Assembly (NCBI GenBank): GCA_041494705.1
Contig: JBGQBI010000001.1
Location: 30,001 to 62,000, forward strand
DNA: 32,000 nt
Origin: Candidatus Methanoperedens sp.
Lineage (GTDB): Archaea > Halobacteriota > Methanosarcinia > Methanosarcinales > Methanoperedenaceae
Direction: 5' to 3'
The notes below the pieces were generated by a model. The model worked only from the letters and a program-made list of their open reading frames with translations, did not search any database and was not told where the DNA came from. The translations under genes and the position numbers were made by a program. Below, piece after piece: positions 1,907 through 28,039 of this stretch; positions within the stretch are counted from its first letter, which is position 1; each line of letters begins with the position of its first letter.

Positions 1907-2845
1907 ATGCATGTGCCAAAAATCGCAATTACGGCTCTTGTGCCCCCTGAATTAATTTTCGCCTGCGGGGGAGAGCCGTTTGATGTCAATAATGTCATAC
2001 CCGCATCTAAAAAAACACCCAGGAACAAACTTTGTGCATGGACTGCAATATGGCAGGAGATGCTGGTAAAAAGAGAACAGAAAATTGACTCATTAATCGT
2101 AGTTGCAGGCGGCGACTGCCATAATGCTCTTGTTGACGGGCAGAAAGTGGCCATGAGCGGGATTCCCACCCACTTTTTCTTTTACCCTTTCGATGGAGAT
2201 GCAGGATACCTTGAATCGCAATTATACAAACTACGCGACTTTCTCGGGAACATCGAATACCCGGAAAAATTCAGGGAAATCGAGAAACTCAAGAAAACCG
2301 GGCAGCAAATCGACAAGAAAAGGCTTTATGGGAAAATCTCTTCGGTAGACGCTTTTCGCATCCTGGTTTCTTTTAGCGATCTTCGAGGCGATTTGAATGA
2401 TTTTCAAAAAGCCATTGCGGAAGTGAAGGAGAGCGATATCGATTTGAATAACAGGGTTGCATTGATTGGCGTGCCCCCGATATATCATGATTTTCATGAA
2501 GTAGCGCAATCACTTGACCTTCAGGTAGTATTTGATGAACTTCCTTTTGAATTCATAAGACACTCAGGGGTTAATATAAAGGAAGTTGCGCGGGATTACA
2601 GCGACTATACCTTTGCCAGGCCGCTTGATTTCAGGATAGGATTCCTCCAGAAGGAACTTGAAAAACGCAAGGTTGACGGGATAATACATTATACGCAGTT
2701 TGCCTGCCATCACACACTTGAAGATGAGGTCATGAGGCAAAAACTGGATTATCCGATGTTGACCCTCCAGGGAGACATGCCGGGAAAAACCCCGGAGCAA
2801 ATAAAATTGCGCCTTGAAGCCTTCAGGGAGATGATTGCGCGATGA
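1907..2845 (+). CDS. 2-hydroxyacyl-CoA dehydratase / benzoyl-CoA reductase BcrC-BadD-HgdB family protein
   Basis: 312 aa with family-like conserved Cys contexts (ELIFACGGEPFD, VVAGGDCHNALVDG, YTQFACHHTLEDE). ATGA overlap with the downstream activase gene. Confidence 0.7.
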   Translation: MHVPKIAITALVPPELIFACGGEPFDVNNVIPASKKTPRNKLCAWTAIWQEMLVKREQKIDSLIVVAGGDCHNALVDGQKVAMSGIPTHFFFYPFDGDAGYLESQLYKLRDFLGNIEYPEKFREIEKLKKTGQQIDKKRLYGKISSVDAFRILVSFSDLRGDLNDFQKAIAEVKESDIDLNNRVALIGVPPIYHDFHEVAQSLDLQVVFDELPFEFIRHSGVNIKEVARDYSDYTFARPLDFRIGFLQKELEKRKVDGIIHYTQFACHHTLEDEVMRQKLDYPMLTLQGDMPGKTPEQIKLRLEAFREMIAR

Positions 2846-3528
2846 TCGGCCTGGATGTGGGCAGTACGACAGCGAAAATGGTCTGGATAGAGGACGGGGA
2901 AATTAAATACAGGATAACAGAGACGCATAACTGGAAAGACCTCCTGAAAGGAATTGAAAACGAGGATATAATTTCAACTGGATATTTTCGAAAATCGGTT
3001 CCACATAAAGCGTCGGTGACCGAAATAACCGCAGCGCAATTCGGCGTGAAACATTATTATCCGGATGTTGATGTGATTGTGGATATCGGCGGGCAGGATA
3101 CAAAAGTAATCGACATAAGGAAAAACCAGTTCATAATCAACGACAAGTGCAGCGCAGGCACGGGGGCATTTCTTGAGTTTGTGGCAAATTACTTCAAAAT
3201 TGACTTGAAGGACCTGGGTTCACTTCATAGCAGGGCAAAGAGAATCCCCCAGATAAACAATACATGCGGTGTATTTGCGGTTTCCGAGATGATTTCGCAG
3301 CTTGTGGCAGGTTATTCAAAAGAGGAGGTTATTGCAGGGATGCATTACGCTTTTGCGCGCCGCATCTCGTTTATGATACCAGAGGCGAAGACGATTGTCC
3401 TGATAGGCGGGGCGGTTAAGAATAACGGGATGGTCTCAGCCCTGCGGGATATCCTGAAAAAAGAAATACTGATACCTGATGAGCCCCAGATAGTGAATGC
3501 GCTGGGGGCGCTTGAGTATGGGCATTGA
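2842..3528 (+). CDS. BcrAD/BadFG/HgdC-type ATPase (dehydratase activase)
   Basis: N-terminal GLDVGSTTAKMV (ASKHA phosphate-1 motif), DIGGQDTK, and the two cluster-bridging Cys contexts KCSAGTGAFLE and NTCGVFAVSE. Confidence 0.8.
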   Translation: MIGLDVGSTTAKMVWIEDGEIKYRITETHNWKDLLKGIENEDIISTGYFRKSVPHKASVTEITAAQFGVKHYYPDVDVIVDIGGQDTKVIDIRKNQFIINDKCSAGTGAFLEFVANYFKIDLKDLGSLHSRAKRIPQINNTCGVFAVSEMISQLVAGYSKEEVIAGMHYAFARRISFMIPEAKTIVLIGGAVKNNGMVSALRDILKKEILIPDEPQIVNALGALEYGH

Positions 3529-4028: not shown

Positions 4029-4142
4029 ATGCTTTAATTGACTTTCTTATAATTTAAGGATACCCATATCTGGCGAGCATAAAATGACAATTGTATAATT
4101 ATGGAATTGACAGGGCAAGCTCGAATATATCAGCTCATCCCA

Positions 4143-14964: not shown

Positions 14965-15254
14965 GATTATTAATTCACGCGCTTTTGTTAAATATTATTC
15001 GACAAAAACCGGAAACGCTTCGGATGGATAACGAGGACTTTTGTCATCAGGACGGGAAAATCAAAAAATTGTCAATAAATCCAGGCTTTTTTTATTGGTT
15101 TTTGGTCGTTTTCCGGCATATTTTTTGGTTTTATTATTAAATTTTTAATAAAAATTAAAATCGCTATGCATTGAGGCAATAAGCTATATATGCTTTGAGA
15201 ACAATTAGAGACCGAAGGAATTAAAGTACTGAAGGCATGAAATTAGGAATGAAT

Positions 15255-25992: not shown

Positions 25993-26853
25993 ATGAATCT
26001 CGCTCTGAATAAGTTTGAAGGATACGGCGAAATAATTGCCGCTTCAATCCTCTGGAGTCTTGCAGGAATACTTGGGAAAATGATATTCGGCATGTCAGCC
26101 CAGAGCATTATTTTCTACAGACTCGCGTTTGCATGGTTTTTCTTTTTTATTGTCCTTTTGATTTCAGGCAACCTGGATAAAATCAGGTTAAAGGATAAAA
26201 AAATCTACCTTTTGTTATTCAGTATTATGCAGGCAATGACAATGCTAACGTATTTCATAGCTATTCTAAAAGGCTCGGTCTCAGTTGCCGTGTTATTGCT
26301 CTATACAGCGCCTGTGTACGTGACGCTGTTCTCTCCCTGGTTATTGAAAGAACGCTCCACAAAGAAGGGAATAATCGCACTTGTTTTGTCAATCGCGGGT
26401 ATCCTTCTCATAATTGACCCGGGAAAACTTGAATTCCAGGGATATTATATCGGAATAATGGCCGGGATTGTGTCCGGCATAACCTACGCTTTCCAGATAA
26501 TAACATCAAAATATATCAGCCAGACATACCGCGGATACACCCAGGCATTCTGGAGTTTCATAATCGCAGTCCTGATTCTCCTCCCGGTAGGGCTTGCGCC
26601 GGTAAATATAGTTTCAGACAATATGATTAATCTTATCCTGCTTGCGATATTTCCGACAATACTTGCAGTATCTCTTTATTTTAACGGCTTGAAAAAAGTC
26701 CGGGCACAAAGCGCCAGCATCCTCGGATTAATTGAACCCGTGAGCGCTGTTATTTTAGCAGTTATCATCCTCAAAGAAGACATTTCAACCCTGGAATTAA
26801 TCGGCGGCGCGCTTATATTGATAGGAGCAGCATTAGTTACAAGGGAAAAATGA
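25993..26853 (+). CDS. EamA/DMT-family transporter
   Basis: 286 aa with about 10 hydrophobic helices and a duplicated EamA-like architecture. Confidence 0.85.
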   Translation: MNLALNKFEGYGEIIAASILWSLAGILGKMIFGMSAQSIIFYRLAFAWFFFFIVLLISGNLDKIRLKDKKIYLLLFSIMQAMTMLTYFIAILKGSVSVAVLLLYTAPVYVTLFSPWLLKERSTKKGIIALVLSIAGILLIIDPGKLEFQGYYIGIMAGIVSGITYAFQIITSKYISQTYRGYTQAFWSFIIAVLILLPVGLAPVNIVSDNMINLILLAIFPTILAVSLYFNGLKKVRAQSASILGLIEPVSAVILAVIILKEDISTLELIGGALILIGAALVTREK

Positions 26854-27203
26854 AAAACTTTAAGAAAGTTTTATCAAAAACCGTCGCGCCGCTTTACTTC
26901 GCAGACACGTATGGCTTTGCCATACGTAAACCTTTAAGAAAGGTTTATCAAAAACTTTTAGAAAAGTTTATTAAATTCAACACGTATGGCTTTGCCATAC
27001 GTGGACACTGCGTAAACCGAAGTTTCGGTTTTCAAACGACAGGTATGCAACGCATACCTGAACACCACGTAAACCGGGGTATCGGTTTACGTGGACACCA
27101 CATAAAGCGAGGTGTCGCTAAACTTTTAGAAAAGTTTATTAAAGACAACACGTATGGCTTTGCCATACGTGGACACCGCATAAAGCGAGGTGTCGCTTTA
27201 TGA
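26850..27203 (+). CDS. hypothetical basic repeat protein encoded through the hairpin array (coding status uncertain)
   Basis: 117-codon open frame whose ATG overlaps the EamA stop (ATGA, 26850-26853) and whose TGA overlaps the map ATG (ATGA, 27200-27203). Repeats read as NTYGFAIRGH and LLEKFIK. There are no family motifs, and the sequence is dominated by palindromes. Confidence 0.25.
   Translation: MKNFKKVLSKTVAPLYFADTYGFAIRKPLRKVYQKLLEKFIKFNTYGFAIRGHCVNRSFGFQTTGMQRIPEHHVNRGIGLRGHHIKRGVAKLLEKFIKDNTYGFAIRGHRIKRGVAL
26854..27202. repeat. dense array of 12 short hairpin/palindrome units (three related families) plus an approximately 79-nt direct repeat
   Basis: Hairpins at 26854-72, 26907-27, 26928-46, 26952-69, 26982-27002, 27014-31, 27040-60, 27067-92, 27106-19, 27120-37, 27150-70 and 27179-202. 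Stems are 5-10 bp and loops 2-6 nt. ACGTATGGCtttGCCATACGT occurs 3 times identically. 26953-27008 repeats at 27121-27176 (54/56 identical). Confidence 0.9.
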
Positions 27204-28039
27204 ACGATACTATTCATGAATATTATCTGGAAGCAGGGAAAATCGCAGCAGAAGTCAGGAAAGAATCCCTTGGCAAAATAAAAGAAGGCATTCCGCTGCT
27301 TGATATCGCCCAATACGTTGAAAACAAAATAAAAGACCTCGGGGGAGTGCCGGCATTCCCCTGCAATATTTCAAGAAATGAGGTTGCGTCCCATTATACC
27401 CCACAGGACAATGTGCCGTGTTTTAAAACAGGTGACGTTGTCAAGCTGGATATCGGGGTGCATATAGAAGGATATATTGCAGATACTGCGACCACGGTGG
27501 AGGTGGGGACAAATAATCACCAAAAATTGATAAAGACCTGCGAAGAAGCACTTGAAAAAGCTATTGCATCGGTCAAAGACGGCGTCCAGACCAACACCAT
27601 TGGCAGGATAATCGAGGAAACCATTAAAAAAAATGGTTTCCATCCAATCAAGGATTTAACAGGGCACAGCCTTGAGAGATACAGACTGCATGCGGGCGCT
27701 ACCATTCCAAATTATAAGAGTTTTTTTGGCAATAAGATAAAAAAAGATATGGTTTTTGCTATTGAACCTTTTGCAACTTATGGTGAGGGTAGAATAAAAT
27801 ACGGGAAACCTTATATTTTTGCAATAAACGACGGGTGCAAAGGAGAAATTGCGCAGGAAATCAGGGAGAGGTTCGGTCCGCTGCCTTTCACTCCCAGATG
27901 GATTCCCGGAATAACGGGCAAAGAACTGAAGGGAGCAAGGGAATATTTTGAACTGATTGAAGAAAGCGGTAATATTGTTGCCCAGTCAGAGCATACGGTG
28001 ATTGTCAAAGAAGATGGGTGTGAAGTAATAACAAAATAA
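27200..28039 (+). CDS. map: type II methionine aminopeptidase
   Basis: Metal-ligand contexts VKLDIGVHIEGYIADTA, LTGHSL, FAIEPF and SEHTVIV. Archaeal length (279 aa). Confidence 0.9.
   Translation: MNDTIHEYYLEAGKIAAEVRKESLGKIKEGIPLLDIAQYVENKIKDLGGVPAFPCNISRNEVASHYTPQDNVPCFKTGDVVKLDIGVHIEGYIADTATTVEVGTNNHQKLIKTCEEALEKAIASVKDGVQTNTIGRIIEETIKKNGFHPIKDLTGHSLERYRLHAGATIPNYKSFFGNKIKKDMVFAIEPFATYGEGRIKYGKPYIFAINDGCKGEIAQEIRERFGPLPFTPRWIPGITGKELKGAREYFELIEESGNIVAQSEHTVIVKEDGCEVITK

Follow-up and report, generated by a model that had tools for sequence, protein, structure and literature searches.

What kind of element occupies the 354 nucleotides (nt) that separate the gene of an EamA-family transporter from map, the gene of an M24 methionine aminopeptidase, in Candidatus Methanoperedens? 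The stretch of DNA analysed here (the window) comprises positions 30,001-62,000 of contig JBGQBI010000001.1, 32,000 nt in total, and the region in question lies at window positions 26850-27203 of the forward strand. A first-pass annotation had described this region as a spacer made up of hairpins belonging to three families (A, B and C). Our reading of the window and a repeat scan located the hairpins of all three families where they had been placed. The array is not a non-coding spacer, as its coordinates are exactly those of a 117-codon open reading frame (ORF; MKNFKKVLSK...IKRGVAL) from the ORF list, which overlaps both neighbouring genes by the tetranucleotide ATGA and which had been missed at first.

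We consider it probable that the array is a member of a family of modular palindromic repeats specific to Methanoperedens, which is inserted in NTGA overlaps between genes and is translatable, resembling repetitive extragenic palindromes and bacterial interspersed mosaic elements (REP/BIME) in kind and mycobacterial interspersed repetitive units (MIRUs) in behaviour. As part of this reading as a whole, the family is likely to be confined to Candidatus Methanoperedens and to be non-autonomous, encoding no enzyme. The rival explanations weighed below, namely an RNA device, protein-binding sites, basic proteins and duplication debris, explain fewer of the facts.

Dispersal and turnover of the arrays

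The same modules were found at more than 100 loci, nearly all of them from Candidatus Methanoperedens, where their order varies and contig ends are frequent. Arrays were delimited by a k-mer library heuristic and unique sites were picked by flank similarity. The exact 21-mer of the C hairpin (ACGTATGGCTTTGCCATACGT), with three copies in the array and none elsewhere in the window, matches 41 genome-contig stretches, almost all from Methanoperedens metagenome-assembled genomes (MAGs) and several per MAG, and the matches often lie less than 100 nt from a contig end. The terminal module (ATAAAGCGAGGTGTCGCTTT) was found in 67 metagenome contigs from many independent samples. The contigs matched by a single exact 20-21-mer number up to about 10 within one MAG and more than 20 within one metagenome. 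These matches show that the element family is dispersed, with dozens of copies per genome, the copy number per genome being a rough lower bound. Patterns of the terminal module and the A hairpin gave no match in viral contigs.

A search for the hairpin units at other loci, as had been proposed at first, found them as mosaics in which the same modules recur in differing order and number. The orientation of the modules relative to each other is constant in all arrays, and only the loops of family C flip. The commonest simple form is an 81-nt three-hairpin unit, ATG-AAAAACTTTAGGAAAGTTTTATCAAAAGAAGGGTATGCTTCGCATACCCTATACCTCATAAAGCGAGGTGTCGCTTTA-TGA, which is flanked by ATGA on both sides and occupies at least nine unrelated gene junctions. 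Among the conserved linkers are RACAC and ACGTGGACAC. Partial block duplications were also observed, with an 88-nt block occurring twice in the window and a 78-nt block occurring twice in L112. The repeated block of the window had been reported as a super-unit of about 79 nt; it is real, and extends over 88 nt at 88% identity (26952-27039 and 27120-27207). The connector ACGTGGACAC, also reported as repeated, occurs three times against 0.56 expected, with up to one mismatch allowed.

The internal 88-nt duplication might be taken as a sign of neutral local duplication debris unique to this locus, an outcome that the first-pass annotation had kept in view. The modules are found at more than 100 loci from many independent assemblies, however, and both the pairing and the open frame are preserved. 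Dispersal and stem covariation refute the debris reading, to which we attach a negligible probability.

Comparison with relatives identified an empty site elsewhere in the window, the ATGA overlap (..GCGCG-ATGA-TCGG) at 2842..2845 of the forward strand, where a double-cubane-reductase-like gene (1907..2845) meets its partner, an acyl-CoA dehydratase activase gene (2842..3528). At the same junction, L017 carries a 157-nt array (GCGCG-ATGA-[157-nt array]-GTGA-TAGG), and a different array is found in L011/L037, which are two contig ends of one genome. L005 (minus strand, sense coordinates 2433-2623) carries a third array with a bracketing tetranucleotide of the ATGA or GTGA type; here the upstream gene has lost about 130 nt at its 3' end and stops at a TAA in the first module. 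An empty EamA-map site was also sought, and every relative found is filled. The arrays at this junction measure 117 codons in the window, 113 in L112, 35 in L073 and at least 110 in L048, and the ORF is kept in all four. In their flanks, L112 and L073 share 90-94% identity with the window, and the array content between the flanks is different. Filled sites are bracketed by a 4-nt direct repeat, with ATGA or GTGA on either side of typical arrays, and the two ends of the array (AAAACTTTAGGAAAGTTTT.. and ..AAAGCGAGGTGTCGCTTT) do not form an inverted repeat. The differing content between close relatives and the empty state of some orthologous sites show that the arrays are insertions with fast turnover.

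A separate case is L110 (1700-2160; GCA_041480985.1, JBGPBB010000006.1), in which map is identical to that of the window and the upstream DNA is GC-rich and unrelated, carrying a CDP-alcohol phosphatidyltransferase gene. The two parts meet within the final module of the array (..catttccGTGGACACCGCATAAAGCGAGGTGTCGCTTTATGA), and the junction is probably a chimera created at the repeat during assembly, with a real rearrangement as the alternative.

Modules of the family were also observed in other arrangements. In L049 (2114-2160 and 2320-2366), arrays are bracketed by direct copies of a long-loop hairpin of 36-47 nt, TTTGATGAAyCC-(about 23 nt)-GGGTTCATCAAA, which is found as well in L082 (140-190 and 362-420), L108 (609-830, three copies), L052, L061 and L101. 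The loop of some copies holds AAAAAGGAGTGAT and then ATGGGTTCATCA, and in these cases a ribosome-binding-like motif and a start codon belong to the array itself. Another dispersed element, about 150 nt long, occurs in L002 (3935-4086), L003, L007, L012, L030 and L033, all from one MAG (CAYXIP01), and in reverse in L009 and L028, the last of which is binned as Planctomycetota, probably by mis-binning. Its centre is occupied by the C hairpin, and it also has an E-like hairpin (GCCCTCCCGAGGCGCGACTCGGGGC) and flanking GCGTTCATC motifs; since the C hairpin is the same, hairpin modules are shared between element families. Arrays nested in another palindromic element (AACTCGTACGAACT..AGTTCGTACGAGTT) were found in L038 (1019-1346), L041 and L042 (3714-3830), with ACGAACTG and ACGAACTC as flanks and not ATGA. 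L057 (5070-5260, 6301-6344, 7270-7345 and 10583-10642), L059 and L072 contain three-hairpin units amid CCGTG/CACGGA repeats, several of them within 6 kb and in both orientations.

The open reading frame

Stop trinucleotides are distributed unevenly among the three phases of the arrays. In the 36 unique arrays that end in ..GTCGCTTT(A/G)TGA, phases 0, 1 and 2 relative to the terminal TGA contain 2, 100 and 53 stop trinucleotides, or 2, 35 and 16 when distinct stop contexts are counted (binomial P = 1.7e-7), and the corresponding numbers for the antisense strand are 81, 56 and 59. Nearly all of the unique arrays (33 of 35) are open right to the terminal TGA. When arrays in any context are included, a stop-free sense frame is found in 44 of 48 unique arrays against 19 for the antisense strand and a shuffle expectation of 13.4; for arrays of at least 150 nt these values are 21 of 25, 4 and 2.9, respectively. 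Among the 27 arrays that are bounded by ATG and TGA, 24 are in frame with no internal stop. They represent at least 13 architectures, some of which (L050) include modules with a length that is not a multiple of three.

The peptide encoded by a given module depends on the array in which it occurs. The same DNA module was found to be read as RIKRGVA or HKARCRF, another as TVAPLYFAD or KPLRRFTSQT, and another as TYGFAIR or RMPTGIR. This use of different frames for one module means that openness is conserved and the peptide is not.

It could be supposed that the ORFs are true genes for small, very basic modular proteins and that the palindromes are incidental to them. The open frames do have good start contexts, the product of the 117-codon ORF (ORF117) is very basic with 25 K+R against 5 D+E, and some loci have a GGAGTGAT motif and their own ATG before the array. 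Gene callers also predict the ORFs: ORF117 is among the genes called on the source-like contig L109 (JGI 3300052988 Ga0534151_0000026), and a protein search with it returned 37 predicted proteins (37 protein clusters), the few with a source name being from an uncultured archaeon or Methanoperedens. None of the 37 has a domain, however, and neither Pfam nor NCBIfam gave a match to ORF117. The palindromes show perfect nucleotide pairing, even at third codon positions, the start codon is missing in many arrays, and length and order vary between close relatives. Together with the translation of one module in different frames, these observations speak against true genes, a reading that we regard as very improbable. 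On the opposite strand, a 93-codon ORF (27032-27313, minus strand) spans part of the array and the start of map and is most likely spurious.

Hairpin pairing and start signals

The 354-nt array is packed with eleven perfect hairpins (stem length 7 bp or more) and one decayed copy. This amounts to 31 hairpins per kb, against 0.54 per kb across the remaining window, and 1000 shuffles of the array region gave a mean of 0.14 hairpins and a maximum of 2. All features described in this and the following paragraph are on the forward strand, and the two flanking genes, EamA (25993..26853) and map (27200..28039), were identified by family search. The left ATGA (26850..26853) joins the EamA stop TGA (26851-53) to the array ATG (26850-52), a boundary that recurs at many other array sites. 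It is followed by the family A hairpin AAAACTTT-aag-AAAGTTTT (26854..26872; repeat scan and hairpin scan), of a type that is the opening module in most arrays, and by module D, ACCGTCGCGCCGCTTTACTTCGCAGAC (26880..26906), which is weakly palindromic at most and is present at other loci too. The first family C copy, ACGTATGGC-ttt-GCCATACGT (26907..26927), adjoins the family A hairpin TAAACCTTT-aag-AAAGGTTTA (26927..26947). The next modules are the first copy of the family A hairpin AAACTTTT-ag-AAAAGTTT (26952..26969) and the second family C copy (26981..27003), the stem of which has 10 bp when the flanking C and G are counted.

The middle of the array contains the family B hairpin AAACCGAA-gt-TTCGGTTT (27014..27031), a family C variant, CAGGTATGC-aac-GCATACCTG (27040..27060), and the 12-bp family B hairpin CCACGTAAACCG-gggtat-CGGTTTACGTGG (27065..27094). 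An internal copy of the terminal module, CATAAAGCGAGGTGTCGCT (27101..27119), is a decayed family B hairpin without the TTATG end; it is fused directly to the next A module, and the same junction is found at other loci. This A module, the second copy of the AAACTTTT-ag-AAAAGTTT hairpin (27119..27138), opens the second copy of the 88-nt super-unit, in which the third family C copy (27149..27171) also lies. [quoted passage not shown] Elsewhere in the window, overlapping AT-rich palindromes in an intergenic region (15134-15160; TTATTAAATTTTTAATAAAAATTAAAA) show no relation to the hairpin family.

The anatomy of the array also disposes of several common classes of repeats, in line with what had been said at first. 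It is not a clustered regularly interspaced short palindromic repeat (CRISPR) array, as there are several repeat families and no unique spacers, and a transfer RNA and a simple tandem repeat were likewise ruled out.

The compensatory stem changes that had been noticed within the window hold over 47 distinct family C variants from other loci, and selection on pairing is real. In these variants 97.6% of the cells are paired, four of the eight pairs change on both sides, and only one G-U pair was found. The covariation score of 0.314 compares with 0.111 in shuffles; it was reached by none of 500 shuffles and is above all slid controls. Perfect Watson-Crick pairing was observed in 349 of 400 hairpin instances (87%). 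The mismatches among distinct variants include five G-T and four A-C, G-T being no commoner than A-C or other types, and this lack of asymmetry means that RNA-specific pairing is not supported. On one and the same stem, family C loops are found either way round (TTC/GAA, TTT/AAA, CGCA/TGCG and CACG/CGTG), and in the CTTTG/CAAAG and CTTCG/CGAAG flips the stems differ in the outermost base. These flips suggest inversion between the arms or hairpin-templated copying. A few stem cores recur, such as GTATG..CATAC, and the stem positions outside the core vary freely if paired. The pairing constraint looks like one that acts at the level of DNA.

The array ends carry start signals for the downstream gene. 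The terminal hairpin is the most frequent hairpin in the family, and in its RNA form, CAUAAAGCGA-GGUG-UCGCUUUAUG, the start codon pairs with CAU and GAGGUG lies 7 nt upstream of the start. In the window this Shine-Dalgarno-like hexamer (GAGGTG, 27187..27192, forward strand) overlaps the terminal hairpin loop in part and precedes the map ATG by 7 nt. GAGGTG is complementary to the 3' end of archaeal 16S rRNA (..CACCUCC), and some other genes of the window have GGAGG-type motifs 4-11 nt upstream. The commonest continuation of the 104 terminal-module copies is TTATGA, in which the base after ATG is nearly always A and the TGA is thereby kept. At 27 of 35 unique sites, the ATG that follows the array begins an ORF that either spans 90 codons or more or continues past the contig end. 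Among the 48 unique arrays, with gene orientation judged from long open frames only, 17 have sense genes on both sides and 3 have antisense genes on both sides, and the downstream gene is sense in 26 and antisense in 6. No covariation was seen by eye between the bases before the terminal hairpin and the gene bases after the ATG.

In L021 (about 4030-4060), L050 (about 215-240) and L091 (4605-4689), the terminal hairpin is of a second kind, (T)CATAAAGGGG-cgtaa-CCCTTTATG(A). It also pairs the downstream start codon, and the TAA of its loop ends the array ORF in some copies, 6 nt before the ATG.

These features could also be those of a host-selected cis-acting RNA device, which would stabilise or process the polycistronic mRNA or set an expression ratio, with the terminal hairpin gating the AUG and the open frame as a side condition. 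A very stable predicted fold (z = -12.7), the position of the AUG and part of GAGGUG within the terminal stem-loop, the mostly sense orientation of arrays relative to the downstream gene and the occupied EamA-map site in all relatives seen are consistent with such a device. The opposite strand folds equally strongly, however, with an identical z-score, and the stems show neither enrichment of G-U pairs over A-C mismatches nor anything but perfect Watson-Crick pairing in 87% of hairpins, where selection on RNA pairing would be expected to leave G-U tolerance. Loop orientation flips, one site has differing content in genomes with 90-94% identical flanks, some orthologous sites are empty, and the flanking genes are functionally unrelated between sites. 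Rfam gave no match above threshold (the single weaker hit reached 21.1 bits at E = 0.18, where the gathering score is 39.8) and so no family. A structured non-coding RNA or leader was one of the three options offered at first, and on this evidence an RNA device appears unlikely, though it should be kept in mind.

Another of those options, a bank of operators for dimeric regulators, belongs with the wider reading that the arrays serve mainly as protein-binding DNA sites, either as operators or for a nucleoid or topology factor. REP/BIME elements of E. coli bind gyrase and IHF. Perfect palindromes at the DNA level that are symmetric on both strands, the few recurring cores (GTATG..CATAC) and the conserved linkers RACAC and ACGTGGACAC would all fit protein binding. 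What such sites leave unexplained is the open frame on the sense strand only, the in-frame ATG and TGA boundaries, the insertion between overlapping genes and the array ends at start codons with a ribosome-binding-like motif. The freedom of non-core stem positions to vary if paired is also unusual for a sequence-specific operator. We judge this reading improbable. The third option, a REP/BIME-like palindromic cluster, was right in kind.

Proposed mechanism and comparison with known repeats

Under the reading as a translatable repeat family, a ribosome ending the upstream gene would terminate at the TGA and re-initiate at the overlapping array ATG. It would then translate through the hairpins and melt them, including the last one, in which the AUG is paired with CAU and which holds part of the ribosome-binding site, and it would finally terminate at the TGA that overlaps the downstream ATG and re-initiate there. 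By such termination-reinitiation through the array, an insertion would preserve translational coupling and cost the host little, and the array peptide would be a by-product. The perfect pairing of the palindromes, together with the flipping of loops, points to a DNA-level process, for which the candidates are recognition of hairpins in single-stranded DNA or recombination between the arms. Such a process would account for the spread of the family as well as for the growth and shrinkage of arrays.

Several points weigh against this interpretation. We infer transcription through the array, its translation and the coupling, all three, from the sequence. Most modules are open in two of the three frames, which somewhat lowers the surprise of an open array, and arrays between sense genes (22 of 23 open) and arrays elsewhere (22 of 25; P = 0.61) have an open frame about equally often. 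This equality suggests that openness is a built-in property of the modules and lends no support to selection site by site. The loci were fetched by matching two particular modules, and the array-ending statistics are conditional on that choice. Several arrays were observed in other contexts, with promoter-like sequence upstream and no ATG, nested in palindromes or, for a few, antisense to their neighbours. The bracketing ATGA could be a target-site duplication, and it could equally be part of the element. Finally, no transposase was found in the fetched loci; a tblastn search of 587 kb of these loci with RayT and IS608 TnpA, which is a weak test, returned nothing below E = 0.6.

A bolder extension is that the modules are independently proliferating DNA units that have evolved to be "codon-phased", with a length and content by which any mosaic of them would be translatable, and that hosts may depend on them through the terminal hairpin locking the downstream start. 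We offer this as a speculation that is more doubtful than probable. If true, arrays would grow, shrink and reshuffle in operons under continuing translation, and the downstream gene would be made only if the upstream gene is translated. The modules would then constitute a new class of archaeal element, combining BIME-like behaviour as DNA with enforced translational coupling.

Our literature searches agree with the earlier statement that an element organised in this way is not known from archaea: searches for Methanoperedens or ANME-2d with palindromic, MITE or repetitive elements (MITEs being miniature inverted-repeat transposable elements) found no description of such arrays. A bacterial analogue does exist in the MIRUs of mycobacteria. 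As outlined in passages of PMC12548453 and PMC3184786 (after Supply et al. 1997), MIRUs are repeats of 40-100 bp between operon genes that insert at start codons; the ends of their ORF overlap the flanking genes at -4 spacing, and they are thought to be harmless through translational coupling. The same passages describe filled and empty sites with tetranucleotide direct repeats, and a copy number that varies between strains. The Methanoperedens arrays are likewise short, intercistronic and seemingly mobile. They were found between co-directional genes of operons, inserted at start codons, with an ORF whose start and stop overlap the flanking stop and start at -4 spacing and with variable copy number, and their filled and empty sites show tetranucleotide direct repeats (ATGA[array]GTGA or ATGA in L017, L011/L037 and L005). 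On the other hand, MIRUs are head-to-tail tandem copies of one unit, whereas the arrays are variable-order mosaics of several perfect-hairpin families; the host is an archaeon and not a mycobacterium; and the last array module, unlike MIRUs, carries its own ribosome-binding-like motif. The two appear to share a working principle by analogy only, having been likened by their descriptions, and shared sequence is not expected. Given the archaeal host, the absence of a single tandem unit and a likening made without sequences, membership of the MIRU family is not claimed.

REP/BIME elements and the REPIN-RAYT system of proteobacteria (PMC2817692, PMC3116915, PMC3733652) resemble the arrays as short, high-copy palindromic units dispersed outside genes, which form mosaic clusters with conserved linkers. 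Both are located between genes and are transcribed with operons, as we infer for the arrays, and both keep their stems by compensatory change. The alternating unit orientation of REP/BIME clusters was not found in the arrays, and no RAYT-type gene, which would encode an HUH tyrosine transposase and be flanked by the repeats, was found by the weak tblastn search of 587 kb. A GTAG or CGTC tag, which in REP is conserved at the hairpin foot, was not noticed in the array sequences read, of which no count was made. The arrays are also ORFs bounded by stop/start overlaps, which REP/BIME elements are not.

Two further types of repeats can be compared through the parts of PMC10969869 that deal with them. 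Rickettsia palindromic elements (RPEs) are translatable palindromic repeats that, like the arrays, persist where the frame matters; according to those parts they measure about 150 bp and lie in frame inside protein-coding genes with a conserved peptide, whereas the arrays lie between genes and their peptide is not conserved. The MITEs of archaea (Sulfolobus, Halobacterium and Haloquadratum) are, like the arrays, small non-autonomous dispersed archaeal repeats. They are defined there by terminal inverted repeats that match a parent insertion sequence, neither of which was seen for the arrays; without terminal inverted repeats, the array is not a classical MITE.

The arrays have practical consequences for work on this organism. 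They break Methanoperedens MAG assemblies at contig ends, can produce an apparent chimeric join as in L110, and give rise to dozens of spurious hypothetical proteins in annotations. At a fixed site the content varies, which makes the arrays possible strain markers, comparable to the MIRU variable-number tandem repeat (MIRU-VNTR) typing of mycobacteria. As far as our searches show, the family would be the first archaeal counterpart of MIRU-type "translation-transparent" repeats, and also the first such repeat that is built from a mosaic of perfect hairpins. The family supplies dozens of gene pairs in which a mini-ORF is either inserted or absent; these could serve as a natural test of termination-reinitiation coupling in archaea, and the family could show how selfish DNA adapts to operon architecture.

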